Numbered from the stretch's first letter, positions 8,711 through 62,466 are shown. The stretch is 64,000 nt of DNA from Candidatus Nanoarchaeia archaeon (GCA_028716945.1 JAQUOT010000002.1:194202-258201), one strand, 5' to 3'. Numbers and translations are program-made. The notes: generated by a model not told the origin, from the sequence alone.

Positions 8711-8814
8711 ATTTTAATTAGGTTTAAAACTATTTAAAACTATAATAAGTAAAAATATCACTTTAGAGTAATTACCAGAGAAAGGTTTATAAAATCTTTA
8801 AAACTTAAAAATTC

Positions 8815-39401: not shown

Positions 39402-41090
39402 ATGAGTAGAATCAAGAATCTGTTAGTAGGACTAGGATTAACAGCTTTATCACTTATTTCTACAAACTGTGGAAATGGAAGTTCTGTAGAAACTATTAAA
39501 TCTATTAATGTTCCAGATATAGAACAGACACAACCAAATCAAAATTGTAGTTATGATAATAACTTTCCAAAGAATTTAGAATTAAAAGTATCTAATGATA
39601 AATATACTTATAGTTTTCCTGAAAATGTAAAAATAAATAACAGATTATCTTATTTACAAAATTGTAGTCAATTTGTAAGTTATAACGGAAATCAATTTAC
39701 TATAAACCCATTAGATACTTGTGAAGATGCAATAGTTTTTGAAACAGAAGATACTAAAAATAATTGTAATCAAACCTATGCTTTAAAATTAAAAATTAAT
39801 GAACCTGATTGCGCAGAAGTAGATTTACCTGAAGAAATAGAAATGAAAATAGGAGAATCTTATAATAAAACCCTTTCTGGAAATATACCTATAATTATAG
39901 AAGATAATAAATTTGTTAAATTAGATGGAAGAAACATAAAAATAATTAAACCTTGGCATATTTATGATAAAAATATAAATATTCATTCTACTGAAAAAAT
40001 AACTCCTTTATACAATTGTGAAAAAGATAAAAAAATAAATGTAAAAATAAATACAATAACTGGAAAAGATGGAACAATTTATTCATATTATAAACCAATA
40101 AATAGCACAAATATTTTAGTATGTGATCAAACAGAAAGTACTCCTTGTCCTTTTGAAAAAAATGAATTTGCTTCTCTGGAGACACCATATATTCTTTTAA
40201 AAGAAGCAATTAAAAAATTAGAAGAAATTACAACTACAAAAGTTTTTGAAAAGTATGCTCCTTTTAAAATACATTTAAATGCAAGTCCAAATGATTCTGC
40301 AAGTTCAACTATTGTAAAAAAAGAAGACTGGAATAAAGTTAAAGCTGGAGGTTTTATTGGAGGAGAACATGTTTATATATTTCAATATGATTGGGCAACA
40401 AATCCAGAATGGCCTATTTTTTGTCTAAATTTAGAAAATCCAACGCAAGAACCTTTAGAACCTACTGAAACTTGTCAATGCGTAGGAAATGCTGCAACAG
40501 AAAAAAATGTTTGTAAATCTATTTTAAATTGGAATAAAGGAACTTATTTTAGAAATCCAGAAACCGATATTAATCCCTGGTTTATACATGAACTTGTTCA
40601 CGAAAGAGATCCTTCTCCAAGAATATTAAGAAAGGGTTCTGATCCTTATTATACAGATTTATATTTACCAGAAAATACAGCAAATTCATTAGAAACTATT
40701 ACTTCTGGAGTTGTACAAGGTTGGATTGCAGGAAAACCATATTTTATAACAAAAGAAATTAATTCTTTTTGTGATTTACCTTTAGGAACAGATTATACTT
40801 ATTTTAGAGCAATGTGTATTCTTACAGACCATGCCTTTGATGTAGAAGCTATGCCTAAATATTTTGAATATCTTTGGAAAGCTTATGAACACAATCAAGA
40901 AATTAGTGATAGATTATTAACTTCTTCAGAAGATGCTAAATGTGCTACAGATCATGCTACAGGATTAAATACTTATGAATGGTTCTGTGAATTTTCTAAT
41001 TGTAATCAAAAGATATGGCCAAATGGAGAAAAAGATTTTTATTATGTTCCTTTAGAATATTGTGGAGAATTATCTCATATTGATAAATAA
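39402..41090 (+). CDS. secreted lipoprotein (lipobox STNC), Cys-rich
   Basis: Signal peptide LTALSLISTNCGNG. Confidence 0.5.
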   Translation: MSRIKNLLVGLGLTALSLISTNCGNGSSVETIKSINVPDIEQTQPNQNCSYDNNFPKNLELKVSNDKYTYSFPENVKINNRLSYLQNCSQFVSYNGNQFTINPLDTCEDAIVFETEDTKNNCNQTYALKLKINEPDCAEVDLPEEIEMKIGESYNKTLSGNIPIIIEDNKFVKLDGRNIKIIKPWHIYDKNINIHSTEKITPLYNCEKDKKINVKINTITGKDGTIYSYYKPINSTNILVCDQTESTPCPFEKNEFASLETPYILLKEAIKKLEEITTTKVFEKYAPFKIHLNASPNDSASSTIVKKEDWNKVKAGGFIGGEHVYIFQYDWATNPEWPIFCLNLENPTQEPLEPTETCQCVGNAATEKNVCKSILNWNKGTYFRNPETDINPWFIHELVHERDPSPRILRKGSDPYYTDLYLPENTANSLETITSGVVQGWIAGKPYFITKEINSFCDLPLGTDYTYFRAMCILTDHAFDVEAMPKYFEYLWKAYEHNQEISDRLLTSSEDAKCATDHATGLNTYEWFCEFSNCNQKIWPNGEKDFYYVPLEYCGELSHIDK

Positions 41091-41091
41091 A

Positions 41092-42672
41092 TTAACCTGT
41101 AGCAGGATTAGTTAAATAATCCCCATAAGTATTAATTTTAACTTCACAACTAGTTATTCCACATTCACAAGTACTTCCAGGAGTTAAATCACACATACGG
41201 ATTCCCCAATTTACATCTCCAGTACAAGATTTTTTATGCCAAACAACTGTATTACCATAAATATCTGGACTATCTTCATGACAATTCGAAGAAGTTATTC
41301 TAGTTTCTGTACTTGTATCAAAATCATACATATAAATATCATTATTTCCATTTCTACCATCTTGCCATACTACTTTACTTCCATAAATTTTTGGATTAAA
41401 TTGGCCAGGAATAGGATTTAATGATATTGTTGTACTTGTAGTTAAATCATATGCATAAATAATATTTTTATTGGCTCCACCTTGATAAACAACTTTATTT
41501 CCATATACATCCCCATAGAGCCCTGTATCAGTTATTAATTTTTCAGCAATTCCACATTCATAAGTACTTCCAGGAGTCAAATCACACATATAAATATTAT
41601 ACATAGATTGCCAAGTAATTTTATTATCTTTAAATGATTGTGGATTTTTATTATTTGAACTAAACATTGTTATTCTTCTATCATTATTAGTTCCACATTC
41701 ATAAGTACTTCCAGGAGTCAAATCACACATATAAACATCCCCAACACTAGCCGGATAAAGAGCATTTCTATAATCATTCCAAATTATTTTATTATCATAT
41801 ATAAAAGGAGAATTTAAAGCATAAGAATTACTAGTTATTCTTCTTTCTTGATCTTTACCTAGATCATATGCATAAATATCATATCTATATGTACCCCCAT
41901 CCTCATTTCTTTGGTCTTGCCAAGCAATTATATTACCATTAACTGCGGGGAATAATGAAGTATACTGGTTATTTGTTATTTGTTTTATTTCATTTGTAAT
42001 AAGATTTTTCACCATTATTACTTTTTTATTTACAGTAGAATTTTCATAAACAACAAAACTAGCAGCATTTACAGGGAATATTTCTCCTTCACAACTTCCA
42101 GTCTCTTGATTACAAGTTCCTCCCCTCAATCCACAGTTTTGTACAAAAGTTAATTCTCCATTTTGGCATTGAGCTAATTTATTAATATATTTTGAATTTT
42201 CCGGAGCACACATATATTCTCTATTTGTCAAGAAAAAAGGATAAAGAGTTTCATCATTTAATGGAATAACACTAACACAATTTGTAGTATTACATTCAGA
42301 AATAGTACTGCAATCTTGACTACGCCATTCTACTCCTCCAAAGGTATCTCCAAGTTTAGTATTAATTAAAGATCTAAAATTATCATCACATTTAGCTTGA
42401 CTTTCACAATCAGTAATAGGATTTCCATTTTTATCATATCCACAATAAGTTTCATTGATACCTCTTGTTAAAAAACTTTTAACACACCCAAGAGTATTAC
42501 TACTCATATCTTTAAGAACACAACAATGAGGAGCGTATTCTAATTTTGGTAAATTCTCTCCAGAAATAGGTATAAAACAACTTGAAGATATAAAAGTTAA
42601 AGAAACAAAAATTAAGATAGATATTAAAAAGAAATGTATATGAAGATCTTTATATTTACTCTTTTTTAACAT
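41092..42672 (-). CDS. secreted protein with PD40/TolB-like beta-propeller repeats and a triple YMCDLTPGSTYECG repeat
   Basis: Repeats of the type IYAYDL...ITS. Three near-identical CDLTPGSTxECG units. Confidence 0.5.
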   Translation of the reverse strand: MLKKSKYKDLHIHFFLISILIFVSLTFISSSCFIPISGENLPKLEYAPHCCVLKDMSSNTLGCVKSFLTRGINETYCGYDKNGNPITDCESQAKCDDNFRSLINTKLGDTFGGVEWRSQDCSTISECNTTNCVSVIPLNDETLYPFFLTNREYMCAPENSKYINKLAQCQNGELTFVQNCGLRGGTCNQETGSCEGEIFPVNAASFVVYENSTVNKKVIMVKNLITNEIKQITNNQYTSLFPAVNGNIIAWQDQRNEDGGTYRYDIYAYDLGKDQERRITSNSYALNSPFIYDNKIIWNDYRNALYPASVGDVYMCDLTPGSTYECGTNNDRRITMFSSNNKNPQSFKDNKITWQSMYNIYMCDLTPGSTYECGIAEKLITDTGLYGDVYGNKVVYQGGANKNIIYAYDLTTSTTISLNPIPGQFNPKIYGSKVVWQDGRNGNNDIYMYDFDTSTETRITSSNCHEDSPDIYGNTVVWHKKSCTGDVNWGIRMCDLTPGSTCECGITSCEVKINTYGDYLTNPATG

Positions 42673-42712: not shown

Positions 42713-43705
42713 TTATTTTGCTAAACAAATACCTGTTTTATCAGTATAACAAAATCTAAGTAAAACAGAATATCCAATTCCTCCACTAAGATCTACTTTT
42801 AAGTGTACATTATGCCCAAGCAAACTTGCGGCAGATACTCCTTGATCCCCTATGTTTTTTCTATATTCAAAACTTACTTTGCTAGGTCGCCCATTTACAA
42901 GGGTTGTTGCATCAACGCTTGCTATAGTAATTTCATTGTTATTAGTTTCATCTACTAAAATATAATTTGATTTTATTGCATAATTTTCTGCATACAATCC
43001 TATATATTCTATTCTAGGATCATTTGGAATTTGAAAAGTTTCTGAAGTTATTGTTGCAGAACTTTCGGTTGCCATAGCCAATAAATTTTTTGGTAAAGCC
43101 AAAGTTGTCTGTAATTCAAAAGCAGAAAAAGCTGAATTAGCTGGATCTTTTACAAATTCTTTATAATTTGCACTTGGAACTATTTTAATTTCTGCAGCAC
43201 CAGAGAGAACATTAAATTCTTCTGCATTTTGTAAATTTAATAAAGTAAAACAATCTTTTAATTCGTTTTTAGTAGGTTGTTTACAAGTATAAGGTTTATC
43301 TTTAATAGTTACTTGAGGATAAATATCTATACTTCCTGCAGTTCCAAGTTCTTCTGGAACACCAAATGGAATTGTTGCAGCAGCATAAACAGGTAAGCTT
43401 GTTTTAATATCCTCTGCTTTTCTTGTTTCTCCTGTAATAGCATATTTGAATGAAGTTATATCTTGTCTACCGGTATTTTCTAAAAACAACTGTACACTTG
43501 GACCAAATATACAAGAACTTTTAACATTGAAAGAAGTTTGTAAACATTTCAAAGCAGCTTCTGCTTCTTCTTCACTTTCCCCAATTTTTAATTTTGCTAA
43601 TTGGTCTCCCCAAGTAAAAACAGCAACAGCAATAATAATAACAAAACCTATAACAAGAATAGTAGCAATTATTGGTTCTACTCCTTTCTTACCTCTTTTT
43701 AACAT
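42713..43705 (-). CDS. archaeal type IV pilin-like protein (class III signal peptide)
   Basis: N-terminus KRGKKGVEPIIATILVIGFVIIIA, compare the archaeal prepilin motif KGxSPIIATVLLI. Confidence 0.6.
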   Translation of the reverse strand: MLKRGKKGVEPIIATILVIGFVIIIAVAVFTWGDQLAKLKIGESEEEAEAALKCLQTSFNVKSSCIFGPSVQLFLENTGRQDITSFKYAITGETRKAEDIKTSLPVYAAATIPFGVPEELGTAGSIDIYPQVTIKDKPYTCKQPTKNELKDCFTLLNLQNAEEFNVLSGAAEIKIVPSANYKEFVKDPANSAFSAFELQTTLALPKNLLAMATESSATITSETFQIPNDPRIEYIGLYAENYAIKSNYILVDETNNNEITIASVDATTLVNGRPSKVSFEYRKNIGDQGVSAASLLGHNVHLKVDLSGGIGYSVLLRFCYTDKTGICLAK

Positions 43706-47670: not shown

Positions 47671-47692
47671 ATAAATTACTATATATAAATAT

Positions 47693-48277
47693 TTATAAGC
47701 CTTTCTTAGCCTTCATATTTTTCCAATCAATAATAACTTCTCTTTGTCCCTTGCTAATGCCATACTCTTTATATTCGTACTTAAACTTTCCAACATCTTT
47801 TCCATGATTAAAGATAGCTTCCGTCATTATTAAATCATTGGATAAATAATCTTTAACTTCTTGATGTTGTCCATCTCTCCACATTTTAGGAATTTTTAAG
47901 GTATCAATTGTTTTAGTCATACCAAGATTTCTTTTGCCTAAATCATCTAATGAAGTCCAACAACCGGTAACTTTTTCTAATTCAAACATTATATCAAAAG
48001 TTTTGCTTTTTAATGATTCAATAAAATTTTTATTAATGTATGGTTGAAGAACAAAATAATCAAATCTTAAAAGATTATGTCCTACAATTAAATCTGCATC
48101 TTTTAAACATTGAATTAATTCTGTTATTTGATTCTCGTTAAAAAATATGGAATTTCCATCCATACGTACTCCAGCGATAGCAATTTTTAATTTACTTGGA
48201 TCCCTATCCACATTAGATATCATATTAAGTTCTTTAAACAAATATTGTGTTTCTAAATCAAAAAAGATTATTTTCAT
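47693..48277 (-). CDS. DEDD-family 3'-5' exonuclease (DnaQ-like). Start moved to MKIIFFDLETQ.
   Basis: The FFDLETQ Exo I motif and ...HNLLRFD. The track's N-terminal extension runs into a GC-rich promoter element. Confidence 0.65.
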   Translation of the reverse strand: MKIIFFDLETQYLFKELNMISNVDRDPSKLKIAIAGVRMDGNSIFFNENQITELIQCLKDADLIVGHNLLRFDYFVLQPYINKNFIESLKSKTFDIMFELEKVTGCWTSLDDLGKRNLGMTKTIDTLKIPKMWRDGQHQEVKDYLSNDLIMTEAIFNHGKDVGKFKYEYKEYGISKGQREVIIDWKNMKAKKGL

Positions 48278-48298
48278 ATTAAATATAATTAAATTTGC

Positions 48299-48307
48299 TT
48301 TATAAAT
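48299..48307 (-). promoter_or_regulatory. TATA-like box (ATTTATAAA on the minus strand) centred 26 nt upstream of the exonuclease ATG, followed by the GC-rich palindrome CGCGCACCCGCTTGCAAG
   Basis: Sequence and spacing. The GC-rich palindrome sits at the BRE position. Confidence 0.3.
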
Positions 48308-48366
48308 CTTACGCGCACCCGCTTGCAAGTTGCAATTTGTTACAATATATATTTGGGAGTATACTA

Positions 48367-48759
48367 TTATTTATTCTTTTTACTTCTATAATCTTGTATA
48401 GCCTTTTTAAGAGCATCCTGTGCTAATATAGAACAATGGAATTTTATTTCGGGCAATTTACCTAAAGCATTATTTACGTCTTCTTTTGTGATTTTTTCAG
48501 CTTGTTCTAAAGTTTTTCCTTTAGCTAATTGAGTAACCATAGAACTAGAAGTTATTGCTGCAATACATCCAGTTGTAGAAACTTTAATGTCTTTTATTAT
48601 TTCTTGACCTTTTTTATTTTTACCTACCTTAATATATACCCAGAGAATATCGCCACAAATTGCATTCCCTACTTTACCTAAACCATCTGGATTTTCAATT
48701 TTACCCATGTTCTTTGGATGTTTAAACAAAGCCAAAACTTTTTTATTGTATGCTTCCAT
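48367..48759 (-). CDS. iscU: Fe-S cluster scaffold protein IscU/NifU-like
   Basis: GDIL/ATTG scaffold Cys motif pattern (NAICGD...). Confidence 0.82.
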   Translation of the reverse strand: MEAYNKKVLALFKHPKNMGKIENPDGLGKVGNAICGDILWVYIKVGKNKKGQEIIKDIKVSTTGCIAAITSSSMVTQLAKGKTLEQAEKITKEDVNNALGKLPEIKFHCSILAQDALKKAIQDYRSKKNK

Positions 48760-50277: not shown

Positions 50278-53200
50278 TTATGGTTTTTGAGATATACTTA
50301 CTGTGCTAGAAATTATAATTGAATCAACTTGTTGAATTTCTGTAGTTCCTTCTACAGGTTTATATTTGCTAGGCGTTACAAATTTAACTTCATATTCTCC
50401 TATTTTAGGTATAGCATAACTAAATACTGCTTTTCCTTTTTCATCTGTAGGTTTATATAAATCCCAGAATAATAAACCTTCTGGAAGAACATTTGTATCG
50501 CAACTTTCAACACAAACATTTACTCCAGAAATAGGGTTTCCATCTTTATCTATTAAAGATAAAGCAACTGTATTAATTGGGTCTTTACATACATCTCCTA
50601 TTTTATTTATACAAATTATATTTAATGTTGCACTTGTAAGATCTATACTTTTTTCTAAATAAACAGGAAGATTTACTTTTTGTTCAGGGAAAATATCTAC
50701 TAATCCATCACAATTATCATCAATAAGATTACCACATAATTCTTTCATTCCAGGATTTATATTTATATTATCATCATTACAATCAATTTCTTCTCCACAA
50801 ATATCTCCAATAGTAGTATTCCATCCATCTTTATCTAAATCTGTACATATAACTTTACAATCGTCATCAAGATTATCTATGGTTCCATCACAATCATTAT
50901 CTTTTCCATCAGTACAATAATCTTTTTCAAGCAAAGGTGTAACTTCTCCTACACAATCTCCCCAAATTCCAGATAAACTACAAGTTTGAAGTCCTTCTTT
51001 ACATATTCCTATATTAAGAGTTTCTAAAGAACCAGAATAACATGTTTTAGTTTGGCCTTCAACACATGAACAACCTTCATCAATTCCTTCAACACAATTA
51101 TTATCTATTCCATCACAAGTTTCTTCTTGTGGATCTCCAGGTATAGAATTACATTCTGTTCCAGTTCCATCTTCTTTACATACATAAATACCTATGTTCT
51201 CACAAATTCCTTGCCCAACAATACAAGAATCTCCTTTGTTTATAAAAATTTCATCAGCTCCATTAATACAATTATCATCTAAATTATTACAAATTTCAGT
51301 TGCTCCAGGATTTATATCTTTATTGTCATCATTACAATCAATTATTCCAGCACCAGAACAATCTATAGTTCTATAAGTGTCTTCATCTTTATCATATCCA
51401 TTATTATTATCTGGATTACAATCTTCATCTTCCCCATTACAAAGAATTTCAGTTGCTCCAGGATTTATATCAGGATTATTATCATTGCAATCTCCAAAAG
51501 AATATCCTACTGCAAAGCAATATGCTTTTTCATACCAAATTAAAGAAGAGGAATAATAATCATCTCCGTCTTTATCACAAATATTAGTACAATCTAAATC
51601 TTCAGAATCAGTTAATCCATCACAATCATTATCTATTTTATCGCTCATGGTTTCATCACCACATTTTTCTTCGGTTGCTCCATTTAAAGGGTTACATGTA
51701 TCTTTTTTTATACCATTTTCACAGATATAAATTCCTGTATTTCCAGAACATATTCCTTCTCCACAAGTTGTTGGTTGATTATACCAAGTTTCTCCAGAAC
51801 CATCTAAAGTTTCAGCATTACAATCATTATCTTTTCCATCACATATTTCTATTGCGCCAGTATAAATAGTGTTATCATTATCATCGCAATCATCTCCCCC
51901 TTCACAAAATTCAGCAAAATGTCCATCCCTATCTGCATCACATTTAAAATCAAAAGTATACGCTGTAAAAACTGCGCTATCTATTTGAGGAATACTATCA
52001 AATTGAATAGATTTTGTAAAATCAAGAGTACTTATTGTTTGTTCAGGCTTTAATGACGTCGCTATATAACTATTTTCCAAATGTTTTTCTAATCTAGAAT
52101 CAAATATAAATCTAGTTCCATATTCTTTAGCAATAGTAAAACTAGGTATTCTTTGTAAATTACATATTACCTCATATTTCTTTGTATAAGTTTCATCATC
52201 TTTAGTAGAAGCAATACAAGAACATCCTTGATTATTTGTAGTGTTACATGCATGTATTGATTTTAATGCGATATTTTTCAAATAAGGATTATAGTATTTT
52301 CCTAAAGAAGAAGTTAAAATTGGAGTTCCTTCTGGAGTTTTTAGAGATATAATCAATTGTATATTTTCTGGAACAGGAACGTCTTCTTTAAAATTAAATT
52401 CTATTGGACCAAGATAATAATAATTACTATCTTCTGTCCCAAATTCTTTTTTAAGAGGTAATTCTTGTTCAATTACTATATTTTTATCAGGAGATATATA
52501 TTCCTTAGTTGCTAAATCAATAATTTGTAAATTATATGTAGAACCTGCTGGAATTGGTTTTGCTAAAGGACTATAACTATCAAAAACAACATTTGTTTGA
52601 TAAACCTTAGCAAGCTCTCCAGGAGCATATTCTAATTTATCTAAATTAACAGATTTAACTGCCCAGGCAGGAATATCCACAATGTAATTTGCTGCGGTTC
52701 CTGTTCCTTGTATAAAACTCATTACATTTCCAGATGAATCTTTTATTATTAAACTAGCATAACCTGCTGCTCCTACAAAACATTCTGGACTTGGATCTAA
52801 TTTAATAGTTAATTCTTCACCTGTAGGAATAGTTATCGCTTCTCCCATTCTACTACAAGATCTAGCTTCGGAATTTGGTCCAAAAATATTAGTTATAATT
52901 AAATCATAAGTTCCTGTAAAATCACTACTTCTTGTATTTTTTACAACAAATTTAGCTCCGATAACTCTTTCTTCTGAAATCAAAGATTGATTAACGTAAG
53001 CCGGATGCGTTGGTAACCAATTAAAAGAAGATATAGTTAAAAAGGGGCAACCTAGTCCTCCTTCATATTTAATTTTCATAGGTAAAGAATACATTATAGG
53101 AGTTCCCCAAGGAGAAATATAAATTTTTAAATCTTTTTCTCCTTCACAAGTTGTTGAAAGAAAACTAGTTTCTATACTCATAGAAATTTTATTCTCTGCA

Positions 53201-53514
53201 CCAATTTTTAAATCTAAATATTTTTTTTCAAAATTATAAGGATATATTCCAAAATATGTTCCTGAAAAAGGAATATTTCCAGTATTGATAGCATCAAATT
53301 TTACATAAAACTTTTGTCCATAAGTTATTGGAGAACCATCTATATTAGTTATTACACTAATTCCTTCTCTGGGATATAATTGATTTCCAGAAATATCAGT
53401 AATCTTTATATTTTCAATAGTAACTTGTTGAATAGCATATGAGATATTAGCAAATAATATACTAAATACTAACAAAAACATACAAATTATTATTTTTTTA
53501 TTTAACATAAACAA
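50278..53514 (-). CDS. giant secreted Cys-rich repeat protein with MopE-type putative metal-binding motifs
   Basis: Signal peptide. At least eight units of CxDxDxxxxPGAxExC(N/D)GxDxDCN. Confidence 0.7.
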   Translation of the reverse strand: MFMLNKKIIICMFLLVFSILFANISYAIQQVTIENIKITDISGNQLYPREGISVITNIDGSPITYGQKFYVKFDAINTGNIPFSGTYFGIYPYNFEKKYLDLKIGAENKISMSIETSFLSTTCEGEKDLKIYISPWGTPIMYSLPMKIKYEGGLGCPFLTISSFNWLPTHPAYVNQSLISEERVIGAKFVVKNTRSSDFTGTYDLIITNIFGPNSEARSCSRMGEAITIPTGEELTIKLDPSPECFVGAAGYASLIIKDSSGNVMSFIQGTGTAANYIVDIPAWAVKSVNLDKLEYAPGELAKVYQTNVVFDSYSPLAKPIPAGSTYNLQIIDLATKEYISPDKNIVIEQELPLKKEFGTEDSNYYYLGPIEFNFKEDVPVPENIQLIISLKTPEGTPILTSSLGKYYNPYLKNIALKSIHACNTTNNQGCSCIASTKDDETYTKKYEVICNLQRIPSFTIAKEYGTRFIFDSRLEKHLENSYIATSLKPEQTISTLDFTKSIQFDSIPQIDSAVFTAYTFDFKCDADRDGHFAEFCEGGDDCDDNDNTIYTGAIEICDGKDNDCNAETLDGSGETWYNQPTTCGEGICSGNTGIYICENGIKKDTCNPLNGATEEKCGDETMSDKIDNDCDGLTDSEDLDCTNICDKDGDDYYSSSLIWYEKAYCFAVGYSFGDCNDNNPDINPGATEILCNGEDEDCNPDNNNGYDKDEDTYRTIDCSGAGIIDCNDDNKDINPGATEICNNLDDNCINGADEIFINKGDSCIVGQGICENIGIYVCKEDGTGTECNSIPGDPQEETCDGIDNNCVEGIDEGCSCVEGQTKTCYSGSLETLNIGICKEGLQTCSLSGIWGDCVGEVTPLLEKDYCTDGKDNDCDGTIDNLDDDCKVICTDLDKDGWNTTIGDICGEEIDCNDDNININPGMKELCGNLIDDNCDGLVDIFPEQKVNLPVYLEKSIDLTSATLNIICINKIGDVCKDPINTVALSLIDKDGNPISGVNVCVESCDTNVLPEGLLFWDLYKPTDEKGKAVFSYAIPKIGEYEVKFVTPSKYKPVEGTTEIQQVDSIIISSTVSISQKP

Positions 53515-54332
53515 TCTTCTCCATCACAATCTTCATCTATTCCATTACCTAATATTTCTTCTGCTCCAGGATGGACTAAATCATTACTATCATCGCAATC
53601 AGTTCCACCACAACTATTACTAGTATATCCATCTTTATCAGAATCAGAACAAGTTGGACCGCTACTAGAACTTCCACCGCCAGAACTACTTCCCCCCCCA
53701 GATCTTCTACAATTAGAAATATCATAACTACAACCATCACAAGATAAGACTCCCCTATCATAATTATCAAAATCAGAGCAAGAAAGCCCATTTAAGTTAT
53801 CTTTAGAACAATCACATTCAGCTTCAATCCTATATCCACTTGCAACGGTTTCAGCTACACATTTTTTAATAATTTCTGTTTTTACTAAATTATCACAAGT
53901 AACATTTCTATTTTCTATAAATATTACTGGGTATAATTCAATATTTTTTGCAGTAATGTCTGTTGGTGCTGCATATCCAATAATATATTGTTTAGTTTCA
54001 TAAACATTCACACTTTTTTCTGCGGTTCCAGAATCAATAACTTGGTCCCAAGATTTTAATCTATATTTTAAAGCAACAATGTTTTTATCCGCTTGATTTT
54101 CTAAATTAATTTCTATTATTTTACTATTAGTATAACAAATATCTTTTATCCCAAAATAAACATTTGAACAAGCAAGACTAATCACAGATTCTATTCTTGT
54201 TTTTTCTTGCTGATTTTTAAAATAATTATATCCCCAGAAAATTATCATAATCGCCAATATTATAACAAGAGAAATTATAATAACGTTGGATACTATTTCT
54301 GATACCCCTCTCTTTGACATTTTATTTTTCAT
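53502..54332 (-). CDS. pilin-like protein (class III signal peptide) with a C-terminal poly-Gly/Ser linker and a MopE-type Cys motif
   Basis: N-terminus SKRGVSEIVSNVIIISLVIILA. C-terminus CDDSNDLVHPGAEEILGNGIDEDCDGEDC. Confidence 0.6.
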   Translation of the reverse strand: MKNKMSKRGVSEIVSNVIIISLVIILAIMIIFWGYNYFKNQQEKTRIESVISLACSNVYFGIKDICYTNSKIIEINLENQADKNIVALKYRLKSWDQVIDSGTAEKSVNVYETKQYIIGYAAPTDITAKNIELYPVIFIENRNVTCDNLVKTEIIKKCVAETVASGYRIEAECDCSKDNLNGLSCSDFDNYDRGVLSCDGCSYDISNCRRSGGGSSSGGGSSSSGPTCSDSDKDGYTSNSCGGTDCDDSNDLVHPGAEEILGNGIDEDCDGEDCLC

Positions 54333-54334
54333 AT

Positions 54335-56437
54335 TTAATCGAACATTGAGAAAGCGCCACCATTTCCACTACCAAATCTTCTATCTTTGTCTGCGCCTGC
54401 TCTTATTCTTCTTTTAAAATCAGCTATATCTTGCTCATTTGCCTTTCCAAATCCAGAAGTATTTCTTAAACTACTTGCTGTTCTTCTTATAGGTATAGAT
54501 TTTCCAATCTTATCATTAACTATTTGAACCCCAGGTTTATCAAAATCAATATTTTCTGGTTGACTTACAGCTTTTTTTCCAGAACCAAACTTTAATTTTC
54601 CACCATATTTTACTAATAAACCCAATAAAACAATAACACCTATAATTGCTAAAGAAGTGAATCCCATATTAGATATATCTTTAGATTGTTGATAGATTGT
54701 AAAACCTGTTAAACTAACTAAACCATCTAATGCTTTTTCAAATATGTTTCTTTCGTCTGTTATTGTTACAGAATCAAAAGTTTTATCCATTATTTTGATT
54801 GAATAAGTTCCTGGTTTGAATAATTTAAATAATTCAATAGATTTTGTCTGATTTGGTGCTAAATAGAATTTTTGTATTGAAGTATCGGATATATCTCCAG
54901 AAGCTTCTATACTAACTTCATCTTCAAATTTATCATTACCCCTATTAGTAAGACTTAATTCTTGTCCAGATAAAAGAATATCAATTATTTCTACAACTTC
55001 TACATTTAAATCCTTAGTTGCTTTAAGACCTTCAGATTTTATATTAACCTTCCAAATACCAGGATAAGCAAATTCTGGTAAATCATATTTCACTTCGTTT
55101 CCAGTCATATCAATTACACTAAATACGATATCATTTTTTGTATTTCTTATTTCAATATCAACTTTTCTTTGTAAAGCATCATTAGCTTGATCATTTAATA
55201 TAGGTTTTATTATAACTGTTTGTTGTGGTTGATATGCTTCCTTATCCAATTCTATTGATAAAGTTGTAGGAACTGGAATAACGTCTATTTTGGTTGTAGC
55301 TTCTCCGTAATTCAAACTTTGATCTTCTGCATTGAATGAAATATTATGATAATAAGATTTTATTATTTTTATAAGGGGTATATTAAAAGTGAATTTTCCT
55401 TCAAGTATATCTGTTGTATAATTTTTATCATCGAAATTGATATTTACTTTAACTCCAGAAACTGCTCCACCTATTTTTTTATAAACTGTTCCAGTAATCT
55501 TTACTATTTCTTCTGGAAGATAAGATTGCTTATCAGTTAATCCACTTACAATCAAATTATTATATAAATTAAATTGTAAAGTATTTTCAAATAAATATTT
55601 ATTTCCATTATTATCAGAAGCTTCTACAAATACCGAATAAGCTCCCGCAGGCATAGAAATTAATTTTGTTTTGTAATTAAATGCGCCAGCAGTAATTGGA
55701 ACTGTATCTACAATATAATTAATTCCGTCTTTTTTAATATAAATTACAGACATACCATTAATGTTTATATCTTTCAAATTAAGAATATTTCCAGAAATTA
55801 TAATATCGTCCCCTAATTGAAATTCTGGTTTATTTATAGCAAAAACTCCTTTCAATTGTTTTGTAATTTCTAATGAACTTGAAGTTGTTTCATCTATTAA
55901 TGTTCCAGAAGTCATATCATTAAAACTTACTCTAAAAGAACAAGTTCCTAATAATTCTCCTGTTATTGGTAAATCATAAGAAAAGGATTCAAGTATATCT
56001 TTTTTTAATCTTAAAGATTTTGCAGCTAATTGAACGCTTTGTAAATCAGAAGTGGTTGTAACTGGTTCTGTTACTGTTCTTGTTACAGTTTCTGTTCCAT
56101 CACTATTAAAATCTTTACAAAAATGTTCCCAACAAACTTCTTCTCCAGAACATTCATCATCTTCATAACAAGCTTTTCTTTCAACTACTTCTTCGTCTAC
56201 TTCTATTGTTTCATTTACTGTGATAGTCCTATATTCTGTAGTTGTTGTTCCACATTCCATAAAAATATTTAAAATTCCATTAACGTCGTTTGCTTCTGTT
56301 ATAGAACCTTTTAAATTGATTTTCTCTCCAAGATTATATTGTGGATTTAAAGTGCTATCAATGGTAATTGCAGAATAAACTTGAGGTAAGATAAAGATTC
56401 CTAGAATAAAAAATATGAATAAAACGCTCTTTTTCAT
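54335..56437 (-). CDS. large surface protein (possible S-layer or adhesin) with signal peptide and a C-terminal TM anchor
   Basis: Signal peptide, about 640-aa beta-rich ectodomain, then TM (LAIIGVIVLLGLLV) and a Gly/Lys-rich tail. Confidence 0.55.
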   Translation of the reverse strand: MKKSVLFIFFILGIFILPQVYSAITIDSTLNPQYNLGEKINLKGSITEANDVNGILNIFMECGTTTTEYRTITVNETIEVDEEVVERKACYEDDECSGEEVCWEHFCKDFNSDGTETVTRTVTEPVTTTSDLQSVQLAAKSLRLKKDILESFSYDLPITGELLGTCSFRVSFNDMTSGTLIDETTSSSLEITKQLKGVFAINKPEFQLGDDIIISGNILNLKDININGMSVIYIKKDGINYIVDTVPITAGAFNYKTKLISMPAGAYSVFVEASDNNGNKYLFENTLQFNLYNNLIVSGLTDKQSYLPEEIVKITGTVYKKIGGAVSGVKVNINFDDKNYTTDILEGKFTFNIPLIKIIKSYYHNISFNAEDQSLNYGEATTKIDVIPVPTTLSIELDKEAYQPQQTVIIKPILNDQANDALQRKVDIEIRNTKNDIVFSVIDMTGNEVKYDLPEFAYPGIWKVNIKSEGLKATKDLNVEVVEIIDILLSGQELSLTNRGNDKFEDEVSIEASGDISDTSIQKFYLAPNQTKSIELFKLFKPGTYSIKIMDKTFDSVTITDERNIFEKALDGLVSLTGFTIYQQSKDISNMGFTSLAIIGVIVLLGLLVKYGGKLKFGSGKKAVSQPENIDFDKPGVQIVNDKIGKSIPIRRTASSLRNTSGFGKANEQDIADFKRRIRAGADKDRRFGSGNGGAFSMFD

Positions 56438-56527
56438 CGTTAATTAAGTATTTTATATTATTTAAATAGTTTACTATAACATAATATTTATATAGTAAAA
56501 TTCAGTTTTTAGTAAAGCCATACGATA

Positions 56528-56537
56528 TTTTTATATA
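56528..56537 (+). promoter_or_regulatory. TATA-like box (TTTTTATATA) centred ~26 nt upstream of the thrS ATG
   Basis: Sequence and spacing. Confidence 0.3.
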
Positions 56538-56558
56538 CTTAATCTTTATTAAAAGATT

Positions 56559-58430
56559 ATGAAATTTTTAAGCTTACACTGCGATTATATAAAATTCAAA
56601 GCTTTAAAAAAAGCAATAAATTCCATAGAATTAAAGGAAGAAGATAAAAAATTAAAAGAAATTAAAGAAACCTTAGTTATACTTACCGCAGTTGAAAAAG
56701 AAGATTCTATTGCTTTAGTTGAAGATTATGTTAAAAACATAGAGGATATTGCAAAACAAGTTAAAACAAATTGTATTGTTTTATATCCTTATGCTCATCT
56801 ATCTTCTCAGCTTGCTTCTCCAGATATAGCAGTTAAAGTGCTTGAGAAAGCTGAAGAAATTCTTAAAAAAGATAAATTCAAGGTTGTAAGGGCCCCATTT
56901 GGAGTTTATAAAGAATTTGAGCTAAAATGTAAGGGTCATCCTCTAAGTGAATTATCTAGAGAATTAAAAATGGGAGATATTCCAAAAGGAAAAACCCAAA
57001 GAGAAGAAATAGTAGAAAAAATAGATAGAAAATATTATTTCTTAACCCCCCAAGGAAAAGAATATAAAGTTGATGTAGAAAACTTAGAAGAAATTAAAAA
57101 AGTATTGGGAGAAATTAAAAACGAAGATCTTTCTACTTATATTTTATTCAATGAGATAAAACATGTAACAGGAAAAGAGCCTCCTTCAATTAAAGAAATG
57201 CAACAACAAGAATTAGTTGGATATGCTCCAGAAGCGGATGTTGGTCATTTCAAATTTTATCCAAAAGGAAATTTAATTTTTGAATTATTAAAAGAATGGG
57301 CATATGAAATTGCAGTAAATAGACTACATTCTCTCCAGATAGAAACACCTGTAATTTATGATTGGGCAGATCCTGAAATAAGAGAACAAGGTGGAAGTTT
57401 CCATGAGAGACATTATGTTGTAAAAGCAACAGATGATCCAAAAAAAGAATGGGTCTTGAGATTTGCAGGAGACTTTGGATTATTTAAAATAATGAAAAAG
57501 GCAAATATAAGTTATAATAATTTACCAATAAGAATGTACGAATTTAGTAAGAGTTTTAGATACGAACAAAAAGGAGAATTATCTGGATTAAGAAGATTAA
57601 GAGCATTCCACATGCCAGACATTCACAGCTTTACATCTGATTTAAATTCTGGGTGGGCAGAATATAAAGAATTATATAAAAATTATGATGATCTAGCTAA
57701 GGGAACAGGAATAAAATATGCAATAGTTTTCAGAGTTGTTGAAGACTTTTATAAAAAATACAAAGACCAAATTATTGAAATGTTAAAATATTCGAAAGCC
57801 CCGGCTTTTATAGAAACTCTTTCAGGTATGAAACATTATTGGGCAGTCAAGCACGAATTTCAAGGATTAGATTCTGTTAATGGATCTACTCAACTTTCAA
57901 CAGTTCAACTAGATGTAAAAGATGCAGAAACATATGGGATAGTTTATACAGATAAAGATAATAAAAAGAAAGGATGCACTATAGTTCATAGCTCTGTTGG
58001 AAGTATAGAAAGATGGTTTTTCTGTATATTAGAAAAAGCATTTTTAGATAAATCTTATATGTGGCCATATTGGCTTTCTCCAACACAATTAAGAATAGCA
58101 ACTGTTGCAGATAGATTTAATAAAGACGCAGAAAAATCAGCTGAAGATTTTAATAAGTTAGGAATAAGAACAGATATTGATGATAGATCTATAACTCTAC
58201 CAAAGAAAATTTCTGAATCAGAAAGGGAATGGATTCCCTATACAATTGTAATAGGAGAAAAAGAAATATCTTCTGGAAAATTGGCTTTAAGAATAAGAGG
58301 AAATAAAGAAATTGAAAATTTGACAAAAGAAGAATTAATTAAAAAATTAAAATCTCAACAAGGAAATATGCCTTGGAAACCATTGCCTCTTAATATATTA
58401 TTAAGTAAAAGACCTATTTTTTACGGATGA
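56559..58430 (+). CDS. thrS: threonyl-tRNA synthetase, archaeal type with N-terminal editing domain
   Basis: N-terminus matches the archaeal ThrRS editing domain (compare Pyrococcus LIHSDYIEYE...VYPFAHLSSELAKP...CKGHPLAELSR). Class II motifs FRYEQ, RAFHMPDIH, GSIERW. Confidence 0.9.
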   Translation: MKFLSLHCDYIKFKALKKAINSIELKEEDKKLKEIKETLVILTAVEKEDSIALVEDYVKNIEDIAKQVKTNCIVLYPYAHLSSQLASPDIAVKVLEKAEEILKKDKFKVVRAPFGVYKEFELKCKGHPLSELSRELKMGDIPKGKTQREEIVEKIDRKYYFLTPQGKEYKVDVENLEEIKKVLGEIKNEDLSTYILFNEIKHVTGKEPPSIKEMQQQELVGYAPEADVGHFKFYPKGNLIFELLKEWAYEIAVNRLHSLQIETPVIYDWADPEIREQGGSFHERHYVVKATDDPKKEWVLRFAGDFGLFKIMKKANISYNNLPIRMYEFSKSFRYEQKGELSGLRRLRAFHMPDIHSFTSDLNSGWAEYKELYKNYDDLAKGTGIKYAIVFRVVEDFYKKYKDQIIEMLKYSKAPAFIETLSGMKHYWAVKHEFQGLDSVNGSTQLSTVQLDVKDAETYGIVYTDKDNKKKGCTIVHSSVGSIERWFFCILEKAFLDKSYMWPYWLSPTQLRIATVADRFNKDAEKSAEDFNKLGIRTDIDDRSITLPKKISESEREWIPYTIVIGEKEISSGKLALRIRGNKEIENLTKEELIKKLKSQQGNMPWKPLPLNILLSKRPIFYG

Positions 58431-59750
58431 TTTATTTTTTAATTTTGTGAGAGCTACTCCTATTAGTAATACAATTCCAGTTATTAATGCAGGATAAATT
58501 GCTTCTGCTTGATTTATTGCTATTCTTCCCATAAATATTTGTATTAAATATATTACTAATCCAACTGATATACTAATTCCAAGTATTTTTTTAGGAATTG
58601 ATATAAAGAAAGATAAAAATAAAGGCAAAAATATAAGTGCAGCAAAACCATTTATTGTATATGCAAAAGTTAATGTATCATAAACTGTTAATGAAATTAT
58701 TCCACCTCCAATTAAAAGAGCAGCAGTAAATATACGCGTCCATAAAACACGTCTTTTCATAAATGATTTACGCAGAGAAGATAAATCAACCGCTAATAAA
58801 AATGTTGCTGAATCAAGGCTAGACATCATTGCAGCCAAAAGTATAACTGGGAAAAATGCAGCTATAATGGGGGGAAGAATATTTTTATATCCTTGAGCAA
58901 AAGCATCTGTTGGTGATAAACCTGGTGAGGCTTGTACAACTGCTAAAGAATAATAAAATATGAAGCAAGCAAGCAAGAAATAAAGAAGAGCAGTTATTCT
59001 TAGACCTTTTGCAGCTACTTTTCCACTAGAAGAGCTATAAATTCTTTCCCAAATTTCTGGTCTAGTTATTGTTAAAGAAAAGGACATTAAAAATAGAAGA
59101 AGCATATTAAAAGATACAAATTTAAAATTCAATGAAGATAAAATATTTGGTTTTGGAAATATAAAAAAAGGTAAAAGTATTGTGATAAATAAAAGTATTC
59201 CTTGAAATATATCTGTTTTAACAACTGCTCTATAACCCCCCATTAGAATATAAGCCAATACTATTAAAACTGTTAGAGCTGTAGAAGCAAAGGCTGACCA
59301 ATGAAGAATCCCTTTAAATAAAATTCCATTCATATTTATTTGAAGTATAATTACCCAAGCTAAAAAGATTAACAAAGCTATCTTAGCAAATCTTCCACTA
59401 AACCCACCCCATTCTTTTCTACAGTAATCTGAAATACACATATAATTATTTTTAGAACCACTTTCTCTTGCTTTAGAAGCAATAAAAGACATAACAATTA
59501 ATCCTACAACCGAACCCATTATAGCTGCTAATCCCCCCAAAGGACCATAGGCAACAGTAAGAGCTACACCAAAGAAAAACATGGATTCAGTAACTAAGGT
59601 TGCAAAAAGAGTCATCACTGTGGAAAATTTACTCATTTTACGATTACCAATAAGAAATTCATTAAGAGTTTCTCCTGAAAGGCAAAAATAACCTATAGCT
59701 ATAACAATAATAGAATAGATTATTATAAGGATTATATCAATGGGTAACAT
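58401..59750 (-). CDS. sodium:solute symporter family transporter
   Basis: About 13 TM helices. SSF-like N-terminal region (TLNEFLIGNRKMS). Confidence 0.7.
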   Translation of the reverse strand: MLPIDIILIIIYSIIVIAIGYFCLSGETLNEFLIGNRKMSKFSTVMTLFATLVTESMFFFGVALTVAYGPLGGLAAIMGSVVGLIVMSFIASKARESGSKNNYMCISDYCRKEWGGFSGRFAKIALLIFLAWVIILQINMNGILFKGILHWSAFASTALTVLIVLAYILMGGYRAVVKTDIFQGILLFITILLPFFIFPKPNILSSLNFKFVSFNMLLLFLMSFSLTITRPEIWERIYSSSSGKVAAKGLRITALLYFLLACFIFYYSLAVVQASPGLSPTDAFAQGYKNILPPIIAAFFPVILLAAMMSSLDSATFLLAVDLSSLRKSFMKRRVLWTRIFTAALLIGGGIISLTVYDTLTFAYTINGFAALIFLPLFLSFFISIPKKILGISISVGLVIYLIQIFMGRIAINQAEAIYPALITGIVLLIGVALTKLKNKSSVKNRSFT

Positions 59751-59872
59751 AATTATAACGAATTATTTGTTATTTTTATACTTTTCTAATAACCTATTAA
59801 GACACAGAAAGGTTTAAAAATAGAAAAGTCTATAAATTAACCATTAGACAGTTACAAAAACGCGGGGTTAAA

Positions 59873-61315
59873 ATGGATTATAAAAGTGCTAAAAATAGAA
59901 GAGAAAAGGTACAATCTAGAACAATTATATTAAAACAGGATGGATTTGAGAAACCATTAGAAAATTATAATTTAGATTCTGAAAAAGATTCTCAGCTAAA
60001 AGTATTTTTAAAAAGAGAGAGTGGAGCTGAAATAGAAAACATAGAAGCCCCACAACACATAAAGATTATGCAACAACAAGAGTTAATCGATTATGAACCC
60101 TCTTCAGATATTGGTCATTTTAGATTTTATCCTAAAGGCACTTTAATGAAGAATCTTATTGAAGACTTAGCTGAAGATATTGCAATAAATAAGCTTGGAG
60201 CTATAAAAATTGAAACTCCTCTTTTATATAGGGCAGAAACTCCAGATATTGCAGAACAAGCTGCATCTTTTCATGAAAGAGATTACAGGGTAAAATTAGA
60301 AGATAGAGAATTACTTTTAAGATTTGCAGGTGATTTTGGTTTGTTTAGTATGATGAAAGATGCTAAATTAACTTATAAAAATCTTCCATTAAGAGTTTAT
60401 GAAATCTCTAATTCATTTAGATTCGAACAAAGCGGAGAATTATCTGGATTAAAAAGATTAAGGGCGTTCACCATGCCAGATATACATTGTTTTTGTAAAA
60501 ATTTTGAAAGTGGATTAGAAGAATACGCAAAATTGCACAAGTTTTATGATCATCTTCTTCATGAAACAGAATTACCTTTTGCATTGGCTTTCAGAACTGT
60601 TGAAGATTTTTGGAGTCAAAATAAAAAATTTATTTTAGATAGATTAAAAGAAAGTAAAAAAGATGGATTGGTTGAAATTCTAAAAGATATGAAACATTAT
60701 TGGAATTTAAAAAATGAATTTCAATATATTGATAATAACGAAGATAATGTACAACTATCAACAGTACAATTAGATATAAGTGATTCTAAAAGGTATGGAC
60801 TTGGATATGTTGATTCTGATAATCAAAAAAAACCAATGGTAATTGTACATAGTTCAATGGGTTCTGTAGAAAGAATTTTGAGTGCAATATTTGAAGAAAG
60901 AGCAAGAGAGATGAAAAGAGGGCAAAAACCTACATTTCCATATTGGCTTTCTCCAACACAATTAAGGTTAATTCCGGTTAATCCTACCTTTATAAGATAT
61001 TGTGAAAATATTCTTTCAGAATTTAAAGGGATCAGAGTGGATATAGATGATAGAGATGAAAGTGTTGGAAAAAAAGTTAGATCTGCTGAAAAAGAATGGA
61101 TTCCTGCTTATGCAGTTATTGGAGAAATAGAATCAGCATCCAATTTATATAATTTAAAATTAAGAGGAAAAGAATTTTCTAATTGTTTAGGAGAAAAATT
61201 AACTACAACAGAAATTAATAAATTACTTTTAAATGCTCAAGGAGAAAAGCCTTATAGAGATTCTTATCTAAATAAAAAAGTAAGTAAAAAAATAAGATTT
61301 GGTTCTTTATATTGA
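59873..61315 (+). CDS. threonyl-tRNA synthetase paralogue lacking the editing domain (catalytic + anticodon-binding only)
   Basis: About 55% identical to ThrRS at 56559-58430 over the catalytic core. Motifs FRFEQ, RAFTMPDIH, GSVERI. No N-terminal editing domain. Confidence 0.85.
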   Translation: MDYKSAKNRREKVQSRTIILKQDGFEKPLENYNLDSEKDSQLKVFLKRESGAEIENIEAPQHIKIMQQQELIDYEPSSDIGHFRFYPKGTLMKNLIEDLAEDIAINKLGAIKIETPLLYRAETPDIAEQAASFHERDYRVKLEDRELLLRFAGDFGLFSMMKDAKLTYKNLPLRVYEISNSFRFEQSGELSGLKRLRAFTMPDIHCFCKNFESGLEEYAKLHKFYDHLLHETELPFALAFRTVEDFWSQNKKFILDRLKESKKDGLVEILKDMKHYWNLKNEFQYIDNNEDNVQLSTVQLDISDSKRYGLGYVDSDNQKKPMVIVHSSMGSVERILSAIFEERAREMKRGQKPTFPYWLSPTQLRLIPVNPTFIRYCENILSEFKGIRVDIDDRDESVGKKVRSAEKEWIPAYAVIGEIESASNLYNLKLRGKEFSNCLGEKLTTTEINKLLLNAQGEKPYRDSYLNKKVSKKIRFGSLY

Positions 61316-61317
61316 AT

Positions 61318-62466
61318 TTAGTTTCTTTTCCAGAAATAAATACCTAAAATCATTGCAATAAAAACAATTGCTCCGATGAATTCATAAACTAATTTCTTTG
61401 CAAATCCCATAAATTTGTTATCAGTTTGAGGTATTACATCAGTAACTTCTTTTACATCTTGTGCCATTACTGGTTCTTGTACTTCTGTAGTAGGATATAC
61501 TATTGGTTTAGCTTCAACTATTCTAGTTAAAGTATGTCTATGACTTGATCCGCCTGATCCACCAGATGAACTTGAACTTGATATAACTACAGGCGCAATA
61601 TTTGATTCATTTTCACCTTGATCATCTTCGTCTTCACCTTGGTCATCTTCTGTTTCATTTACAAAACCACAAATAGATACATTTATTGTACTCTCTTCTG
61701 TTCTAAGTAAACTAAGAATATTCATCACTGCAGATCTATCTGGAATTTCTATAATTCCATTTCCATCGAAATCAAATTTAATTTGATCAAGAGGCAATCC
61801 ATTAGTTAATGCATCTTCTATAAAATTTAAAGAAGTATTTGCTTCTTCTTTACTAATAAAACTATCATTATTTGCATCTAATTCTTCACATGCAGTTGAA
61901 TTATAATTGAATTCTGTTTCATTTGATTCATTTTCATCAATAGATTCAGTTTCATTTGATTCTGTATCATTTATTGGTGTTGGGTTAGTTAAAATGTATT
62001 TTAATGCTTCGATATCATATTCATCAAAATCATTGTCATCATCCATATTCATATTTGAACAATCTGCTACAGGTGAGCAAGTTATATTTTGATTACTTAC
62101 TAAAAAAGTTAAACAAGATAAATCAGGAATTTCTATTAGATTATTACCATCGCAATCTCCTTTTAAAGGTTGTAATTTATCTAAATTAACTTCTGAATTT
62201 TCTTCAGTAATATTTTGATTTTCAGTTAAAACATTTTCTAAAAATATGATATCTAGTTCATTGATATTCCCGTCATTATTTGCATCCATATTTGAACAAT
62301 TATAAGTTGTATTACATAGATTTTGATCTGCAACTATTTGATTCATGCACGATAAATCAGGTATTTCTATTAAATTATTACCATCGCAATCGCCTTGTAA
62401 AGCAAATGCTAGTGGAACTAAAAAAATCATTACAAAAAACATTAATATTTTCTTTATAGTATTCAT
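61318..62466 (-). CDS. secreted protein with dockerin-like / EF-hand-like Ca-binding repeats, acidic linker, poly-Ser/Gly segment and C-terminal TM
   Basis: DANNDGNINELD matches the dockerin loop DxNxDGxINxxD. GDCDGNNLIEIPDLSC is repeated twice. Confidence 0.5.
   Translation of the reverse strand: MNTIKKILMFFVMIFLVPLAFALQGDCDGNNLIEIPDLSCMNQIVADQNLCNTTYNCSNMDANNDGNINELDIIFLENVLTENQNITEENSEVNLDKLQPLKGDCDGNNLIEIPDLSCLTFLVSNQNITCSPVADCSNMNMDDDNDFDEYDIEALKYILTNPTPINDTESNETESIDENESNETEFNYNSTACEELDANNDSFISKEEANTSLNFIEDALTNGLPLDQIKFDFDGNGIIEIPDRSAVMNILSLLRTEESTINVSICGFVNETEDDQGEDEDDQGENESNIAPVVISSSSSSGGSGGSSHRHTLTRIVEAKPIVYPTTEVQEPVMAQDVKEVTDVIPQTDNKFMGFAKKLVYEFIGAIVFIAMILGIYFWKRN

Follow-up and report, generated by a model that had tools for sequence, protein, structure and literature searches.

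The DNA analysed here is a stretch of 64 kb (JAQUOT010000002.1:194202-258201), called the window below, and the subject is a surface-protein locus at 50278-56437 which consists of three minus-strand genes, A, B and C; coordinates are those of the whole window unless another sequence is named. Gene A encodes a type-I membrane protein, gene B a pilin-like protein with a modular extension and gene C a very large secreted protein. Genes B and C constitute a conserved, translationally coupled two-gene module, which lies in a replaceable slot beside the conserved membrane protein. The three genes had been recognized in an earlier note made from the sequence alone, and they are borne out by the open reading frame (ORF) calls (A, 54335..56437; B, 53502..54332; C, 50278..53514), as are the 2-nucleotide (nt) gap at the A/B junction (TAA-AT-ATG) and, when C starts at TTG, the 13-nt overlap of B and C. 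From the TTG, C (50278..53514) has 1078 amino acids (aa). An ATG lies two codons into the ORF (53508) and begins MLNKK.., as in the N-termini of the C homologues, and with this start the overlap with B is 7 nt (ATGTTAA). The genes, their modules and the related loci are listed in Table 1.

The window has about 27% G + C and encodes a threonyl-tRNA synthetase (ThrRS) with the archaea-specific editing domain and apparently also a proteasome alpha subunit and exosome RNase PH subunits (N-terminal sequence only; no profile scan). The nearest relative of A, 96% identical, is found in a metagenome-assembled genome (MAG) named "Candidatus Nanoarchaeia archaeon" (JBAZJB010000001.1, locus L003), and every homologue of A comes from Nanoarchaeia or Nanoarchaeota MAGs. 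Because of the archaeal ThrRS, the 96%-identical Nanoarchaeia protein and the source of all the A homologues, the host of the locus is assigned by sequence to the DPANN archaea.

Table 1. Genes and protein modules in the window, and gene order at related loci
Feature	Position	Strand	Basis or remarks
Gene A, 700-aa type-I membrane protein	54335..56437	-	ORF call, Pfam, hydropathy, homologue alignments
Gene B, 276-aa modular type IV pilin-like protein	53502..54332	-	ORF call, profiles, AlphaFold2 (AF2) model
B leader MKNKMSKRG, predicted prepilin-peptidase site KRG/VSEIV	54306..54332	-	Sequence and published criteria
B pilin module, residues 10-160	53853..54305	-	Helix 12-56 and β-sandwich 60-154 (AF2 model)
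B Cys-rich module, residues 173-208, CDCSKDNLNGLSCSDFDNYDRGVLSCDGCSYDISNC	53709..53816	-	Alignments; no Pfam match; low AF2 confidence
B terminal MopE-type unit, residues 228-276	53505..53651	-	Pfam PF11617 and alignments
Gene C, 1076-aa (ATG start) secreted anchorless protein	50278..53508	-	ORF call, Pfam, hydropathy, homologue alignments
C MopE/Cys-rich repeat region, residues 525-935 (TTG numbering)	50710..51942	-	Pfam and motif count
C C-terminal β domain, residues 960-1078	50281..50637	-	Conserved in C homologues; also ends fusion protein P0009 (33% identity)
Replaceable cassette	50283..54324	.	blastn, window against L003
B2, second pilin-family gene, 330 aa, MLKRGKKGVEPIIATILVIGF..	42713..43705	-	Similarity to B, E 2e-14; family hidden Markov model (HMM), E 7e-46
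C2, 526-aa Sec-secreted protein, 25 Cys, β-propeller	41092..42672	-	Starts 40 nt downstream of B2
Locus L001			A-B-C; 4-nt B-C overlap; C 38% identical
Loci L010/L011			A-B-C; 4-nt overlap
Locus L013			A-B-C-HTH_5-IscS-IscU, same order as window; 0-nt B-C gap
Loci L015-17			A, RmlD-like gene (opposite strand), then B-C-HTH_5-IscS

Gene B and the Archaeal Type IV Pilin Family

By sequence profile and predicted fold, B is a member of the archaeal type IV pilin family. A class III signal requires Gly, Ala or Ser at position -1, a charged residue at -2 and a processing site placed before the hydrophobic domain (H-domain) (PMC4371748, PMC3387779), and these criteria were applied by hand to B. The predicted site, MKNKMSKRG/VSEIVSNVIIISLVIILAIMIIFW, has a positive charge at -2 and Gly at -1 and is followed by a hydrophobic domain, which is N-terminal, is the only one in the hydropathy profile of B and has KRG just before it. 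In addition, the site KRG/VS resembles the RA/VS sites of Haloferax PilA.

A profile made from residues 1-170 of B and two homologues was scored against 1.84 billion representatives and detected 713 proteins at E<=1e-3, 67 of them at E<=1e-10. Most of these relatives are 150-175 aa long with the N-terminus KRGISPLIATVLII, and their M-K-K-R-G-I-S-P-L-I-A-T-V-L-I-I-G-F start is the textbook archaeal class III/Pilin_N N-terminus; Pilin_N itself is matched by 18 of 50 profile-detected relatives at E<=1e-3. The matches span positions 5-150 of B, and therefore the β-domain, not the helix alone, is common to the family. The family-conserved residues W33, C55, N79, P135 and C146 are all present in B.

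Structure prediction of the 276-aa protein alone, which the earlier note had proposed as a check, gave with a 50-sequence alignment a confident model of residues 10-160 (predicted local distance difference test (pLDDT) score 88-98), consisting of a 45-residue helix and a β-sandwich. A long N-terminal helix packed on a β-sandwich, the mark of the pilin fold, is what this model displays; in the PDB it is matched best by a subunit of an archaeal type IV pilus, the filament-subunit fold being matched over the whole length. An earlier AF2 run with a 3-sequence alignment had reached a pLDDT of 59, and Foldseek gave generic immunoglobulin (Ig)/FN3 matches only; likewise, a PDB profile search with the B sequence gave weak, helix-level matches to archaeal filament subunits only. 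An exact look-up of B in the assembly index returned no record, and a scan of metagenome data with the alignment for the B pilin domain yielded a single locus, which was already known.

At the metagenomic locus L019, one operon encodes two family members, of 288 aa and of 927 aa (P0029), together with an ATPase of T2SSE type and two platform proteins of T2SSF type. The pilin-like nature of B, as read in the earlier note, is supported by the family profile, by the fold and processing motif, and by a relative that is encoded in a type IV pilus (T4P) operon. As a separate observation on this operon (L019, 1..2378 and 5601..9146), the product of its pilus ATPase gene has 2219 aa and several intein and LAGLIDADG matches.

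Modular Extension of B

Behind the pilin module, B carries a short extension which is kept in all B homologues: a Cys-rich module, a Gly/Ser linker at residues 212-225 and a terminal MopE-type unit, for which PF11617 gives one match (residues 245-272, 36.9 bits, cut-off 27); both the poly-Gly/Ser linker and the Cys/Asp motif that had been noticed at the end of the protein are thus present. In the MopE unit of all B homologues Gly replaces the canonical Cys (EILGNGIDE[DN]C), and the unit ends in ..CDG[SE]D[LC]xC.

Such extensions are frequent in the family: about 49 of the 150 best B relatives are longer than 250 aa, and the longer relatives carry LamG, bacterial TSP3 repeats, CBM, MopE repeats or a pectate-lyase-like β-helix. 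P0135 combines in one chain a pilin, a Gly/Ser linker, MopE repeats and a large domain. In public records these archaeal modular pilins are unnamed or "hypothetical". B would be a pilin of this "modular pilin" kind, continuing past its pilin part with a Cys-rich module and, behind a Gly/Ser linker, a single MopE-type unit, and this assignment belongs to an overall explanation that we consider fairly probable.

Gene C

The hydropathy profile of C has a Sec-type signal and no other hydrophobic segment, so C is taken to lack an anchor, in agreement with the earlier description of the last product as secreted. After the Sec signal comes an N-terminal region of about 500 aa that is confined to this gene family; next are a disulfide-rich MopE/CxxGxGxC part and, at the C-terminus, an Ig-like domain, for which the L015 homologue has a weak Big_1 match (22.8 bits, under the cut-off). 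Against PF11617, C scores 111.5 bits (E 2e-32) with five stretches resolved by Pfam, so that the profile search suggested in the earlier note places both B and C over the cut-off of 27; the L013 and L015 homologues are above it as well. Counted by hand, C contains four full and three half MopE units (half units having CDGxDNDC only), which alternate with CxxGxGxC modules. "At least eight" copies, as counted before, is therefore too many. The range given in the earlier note for the motif outside this locus, bacterial surface proteins, is likewise too narrow: PF11617 proteins are common in these archaeal genomes, and there are four within 18 kb in L013. The sole PDB sequence match for C is to MopE* (2vov, residues 15-43, E 0.052). 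The MopE/CxxGxGxC array would serve as a rigid, disulfide-stabilised stalk, probably one that binds Ca2+, rather than as a copper site.

Elsewhere in the window, at 23326..24363 (minus strand), a membrane-anchored thioredoxin/DsbA-like protein with 11 Cys is encoded (VSR_TRX, 46.8 bits). It is plausibly an extracytoplasmic disulfide oxidoreductase for Cys-rich secreted proteins, and its presence fits the export of disulfide-rich proteins.

Linkage of B and C in a Replaceable Slot

Homologues of B are rare: an indexed search gave two full-length matches and an exhaustive search two further clusters. B and C are adjacent in five lineages (the window, L001, L010/L011, L013 and L015-17), with B proteins that are 46-67% identical and a B-C spacing ranging from a 7-nt overlap to a 29-nt gap. 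All the B homologues with enough contig have C or a piece of C directly downstream, and wherever the contig continued no B homologue without C or a C piece was found. In a sixth lineage, represented by five contigs from different samples (L005-9), a 466-aa protein, P0009, stands at the same position upstream of HTH_5-IscS-IscU, with no adjacent A and no separate C. P0009 is composed of a B homologue, two repeats which are dockerin-like by eye (no Pfam match) and a domain 33% identical to the C-terminal domain of C. The tie of B to C that the earlier note had proposed is therefore upheld by adjacency or overlap in five lineages and by one fusion.

Gene A behaves differently. In L003, where A is 96% identical, the next gene encodes an unrelated 507-aa protein with a signal and a transmembrane (TM) segment; in L004 a propeller-like protein and proteins that are RHS/YD-like by eye come after A, and in L014 small cytoplasmic-type genes do. 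Furthermore, an opposite-strand gene splits A from B in L015-17, and A is absent at the L005 fusion. The slot occupied by B-C lies between A (or the RmlD-like gene) and the arsR-iscS-iscU genes. When the window is compared with L003 by blastn, the flanks are 92-95% identical and the homology breaks exactly at the B start codon and the C stop codon; the L003 counterpart of the cassette (Table 1) is 1.5 kb with the single 507-aa gene. Because A persists without B and C, the B-C linkage stays and the cassette break is exact, what had been described as a three-gene locus is really a two-gene B-C module. The co-occurrence of the three genes in relatives, which had been named as a check by synteny, thus holds for B and C and only in part for A.

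A Second Pair and Parallel Designs

About 8 kb from B-C, the window contains a second pair, B2-C2, which is kept in L003, where B-C is not. In its pilin module B2 shares 26% identity with B; its C-terminal module differs, and B2 has Glu at +2. In the window, an HMM of the family N-terminal domain detects B and B2 and no other protein. The propeller repeats of C2 match the C-terminal part of P0039 from Woesearchaeota, a single-chain protein with pilin, Cys-rich and propeller parts. In L019, moreover, a 1181-aa secreted Peptidase_C25 protein is encoded directly after a family pilin. With B2/C2 and its counterpart P0039, with P0135 and with the L019 pilin and its 1181-aa neighbour, the lineage thus shows repeatedly the combination of a pilin and a large secreted partner, either in one chain or as two genes.

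Gene A

The N-terminal signal-like segment and the single C-terminal TM segment (about residues 593-612) that had been described for the 700-aa protein are confirmed by hydropathy. The ectodomain is Ig-like with one MG2 domain (residues 397-475, Pfam 35.8 bits, cut-off 32.8), and the cytoplasmic tail has 88 aa which are conserved across homologues (FGKAxExDIxDFxxR ... G-x-FSMF). The alpha-2-macroglobulin architecture, with multiple MG domains, a bait region and the thioester CGEQ, is not seen in A, which has 700 aa and no CGEQ, and a PDB profile search with A gave nothing useful (complement C4 only, E 0.49). Judged by its domain match, A simply holds an MG2-type Ig-like domain. It is a conserved and frequent neighbour of B-C, not an obligate part of the module, and a model in which A anchors C was rejected as the main model, A being found without B/C and B/C without an adjacent A.

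Two further observations were made on A. The tail motifs (54335..54600) are nearly invariant over homologues that are 27-96% identical, which hints at an intracellular partner. In the window and L003, residues 62-132 form an insert of about 70 residues with four extra Cys, which is missing from the homologues of about 620 aa; all of the six Cys of A lie within residues 62-166.

Proposed Role and Alternative Explanations

The explanation that we hold with moderate confidence is that B is a modular or minor pilin which tethers the anchorless giant C for display, B and C being a coupled module. B would be cleaved by a prepilin peptidase at the predicted site and inserted by type IV pilus machinery, and it may thereby be incorporated into a filament, at its tip or base, or into a short pseudopilus. 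Its C-terminal extension would then contact and hold C, whose lineage-specific head would be displayed away from the cell as an adhesin or a recognition factor. A place at the pilus tip or along the fibre and a role in adhesion or host attachment, as suggested in the earlier note, are plausible, and the MopE units might be where B and C meet. The B-C slot is exchanged between close strains, consistent with diversified surface specificity in a host-dependent DPANN archaeon.

Several points weigh against this explanation. On B alone, the dedicated pilin models stay below their cut-offs (Pilin_N PF07790, 16.9 bits against 25.2; TIGR02537, 18.1 bits against 20). Because of this, the class III assignment rests on the family profile, the fold, the processing motif and the relative in a pilus operon; the prepilin-like start reported in the earlier note is accordingly carried by the motif criteria, the family profile and the fold, and not by these two models. 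The family HMM found no stand-alone (major) pilin of the B family in the window. A domain scan of 30 ORFs and Walker-A/TM heuristics on 52 ORFs found no prepilin peptidase, pilus ATPase or PilC/TadC in the 64 kb; a 7-TM ORF at 20606..21292, considered as a prepilin peptidase, was rejected, having no Pfam match and no GxGD motif. The AF2 model of the C-terminal 115 residues of B is of low confidence, and the Gly-for-Cys MopE variant is not specific to B, being found also in other surface proteins of L013. The idea that the missing Cys marks a free cysteine for a disulfide to C was dropped, the variant occurring in unrelated surface proteins. P0009 is without the head and stalk of C and could be a deletion product, not a clue to contact. 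Finally, a word-indexed homology search with residues 28-520 of C gave no matches, the N-terminal region of C has no Pfam or PDB-profile domain match, and an adhesin role is a guess.

Some of these points would suit a doubtful alternative in which B is a class III-signal membrane anchor of C that stays in the membrane, in a short pseudopilus or in an envelope structure like the Sulfolobus bindosome, and makes no extended pilus. Non-filament archaeal surface proteins use class III signals (PMC3047682, PMC4371748), the anchorless C needs an anchor, and in the window B and B2 lie neither beside pilus biogenesis genes nor with a major pilin of their family, although archaeal pilin genes are often unlinked to the machinery genes (PMC4371748). 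The pilin module of B, however, is a full member of a family which includes stand-alone pilins of about 160 aa and members in the T2SSE/T2SSF operon, and its fold matches filament subunits over the full length. It is unlikely that A, B and C are independent surface proteins which became neighbours through a hotspot of surface-gene turnover, with MopE as a shared building block of the lineage. The adjacency, the order and mostly the overlap of B and C are kept in five lineages at the identities given above, even where an opposite-strand gene separates A; the fusion protein P0009 exists; and no B homologue stands without C or a C piece where the contig continued. These facts stand against the observations from which the idea draws, namely that unrelated genes fill the slot in L003, L004 and L014, that A is clearly present without B/C and that MopE units occur in many other nearby secreted proteins, e.g., the 421-aa and 394-aa proteins in L013.

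A role of the locus in the acquisition or handling of metal (copper), as for Methylococcus MopE, with the repeats as metal sites, is highly improbable. The idea is suggested by the PF11617 family name, "Cu-binding_MopE", and its description as a "putative metal-binding motif", by the weak match to MopE* and by a ZIP transporter elsewhere in the window. However, the match covers residues 15-43 of MopE* only, and the copper site of MopE*, in the account of Helland et al. 2008, is reportedly made of histidines and a kynurenine elsewhere in the protein, which we count against this idea. In addition, the PF11617 motif is rich in Asp and Cys, fitting Ca2+/disulfide structural repeats, the MopE units of C alternate with EGF-like CxxGxGxC modules, as in the stalks of surface proteins, and none of the loci has a linked gene for a metal transporter or chaperone.

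If B is a pilin which presents C, a wider proposal may be put forward tentatively, as a possibility: DPANN Nanoarchaeia would possess "split modular pilins", in which an adaptor pilin (B or B2) captures an interchangeable, anchorless giant (C or C2) and displays it on type IV filaments, and the cassettes would be swapped between near-identical strains, changing the specificity for hosts or surfaces. Pili-like appendages have been seen to link ultrasmall cells (likely, by their size, candidate phyla radiation (CPR)/DPANN) to hosts (PMC7906910). A pilin-family protein with pilus-operon relatives, a conserved anchorless giant partner and a slot that varies between strains whose flanks are 92-96% identical are candidates for DPANN host attachment. 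Each part on its own is of a known kind, whether the archaeal type IV pilins and the modular pilins or the PF11617 repeats and the variable surface-gene slots; new are their combination in DPANN, the split pilin and partner with fused counterparts, and a cassette replacement that is exact between nearly identical strains. For bacteria the "modular pilin" idea had been documented; here it is extended to a large unannotated archaeal family (713 relatives), whose module can form one chain with the pilin or come from a gene of its own that is coupled to the pilin gene. If true, split modular pilins would be an archaeal counterpart of minor pilins/PilY1 with a cassette-type surface variation, and a concrete molecular candidate for host recognition by episymbionts.

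Other Observations in the Window and Its Relatives

The window and the related loci contain further genes outside these subjects. Two of bacterial type lie on the minus strand: a 362-aa ORF at 29453..30541 with Sigma70_r2 (37.5 bits) and Sigma70_r4 (66 bits) matches, i.e., a bacterial-type sigma factor in a DPANN archaeon, and a full-length prolipoprotein diacylglyceryl transferase (Lgt, 218 bits) at 21915..22673, an enzyme of the bacterial lipoprotein pathway in an archaeon. Lipobox-like signals are seen in ORFs near Lgt, e.g., at 39402..41090 (LISTNC). The region 56510..61314 holds two ThrRS genes, of which one (56559..58430) is archaeal-type and has the PF08915 editing domain and the other (59873..61315) is a core lacking that domain, and in addition a gene for an SSF-family transporter; at the same place L003 (8202..9928) has a single bacterial-type ThrRS (tRNA_SAD), and likewise L001 and L004. 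A 382-aa secreted/TM protein at 61318..62466 (minus strand) contains dockerin-like repeats (Dockerin_1 at 22 bits, slightly below the cut-off), and the 507-aa protein which replaces B and C in L003 (12106..13629) has an N-terminal module with 32% identity to the one found here. L003, although otherwise collinear, lacks a 211-aa ORF of the RNase_H superfamily that the window has at 47672..48373 (21 bits, below the cut-off). In L004, downstream of the A homologue (6529..9479), two proteins which are RHS/YD-repeat-like by eye are encoded with small membrane ORFs between them, an arrangement which, in this Nanoarchaeota MAG, resembles that of polymorphic toxin and immunity genes.

Comparison with Known Systems

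Bacterial modular type IV pilins, such as PilB (vWA module) and PilC (lectin module) of Streptococcus sanguinis (Raynaud et al. 2021, PMC8179133), consist of a small pilin module that a short linker connects with a functional module, and they are widespread, varied and probably exposed at the filament tip; the survey which described them left archaea uncovered (PMC8179133). Like them, the B family grafts modules, including LamG, TSP3, CBM, MopE and β-helix, onto a pilin. Unlike them, B carries a pilin module and processing site of the archaeal Pilin_N type instead of the bacterial IPR012902 type; its graft is small (about 115 aa), Cys-rich with one MopE unit and no obvious binding domain; and most of the "module" is encoded apart, in the co-translated gene C.

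The PF11617 repeat proteins include Methylococcus MopE, myxobacterial surface proteins and the Cys-rich region of teneurins (PMC3278476). B and C share with them the same Cys/Asp-rich unit, C-x-D-G-x-D-N-D-C-D-G, and differ in that the unit is placed on a pilin and arrayed in an archaeal secreted giant; the motif does not imply copper binding. As in the archaeal non-filament surface proteins of the bindosome style, a class III signal would place a functional protein at the surface. Unlike those proteins, B has a complete pilin β-domain, with no solute-binding domain and no linked ABC transporter.

For archaeal T4P loci, Makarova et al. 2016 (PMC4858521) predicted PilY-like DUF2341 adhesins. 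In B-C, as in the minor-pilin/PilY1 tip complexes, a large Sec-exported non-pilin protein, thought to be displayed by pilins, is encoded beside a pilin-like gene. The C-terminal domain of PilY1 is a β-propeller, and C2 beside B2 likewise has a β-propeller. Unlike the case of PilY1 and DUF2341, there is one pilin partner and not a four-pilin set, the locus lies outside a pilus operon and the sequences are not similar. In the best-supported model, B-C would be functionally analogous to the bacterial modular pilins, the minor-pilin/PilY1 complexes and the archaeal PilY-like adhesins.

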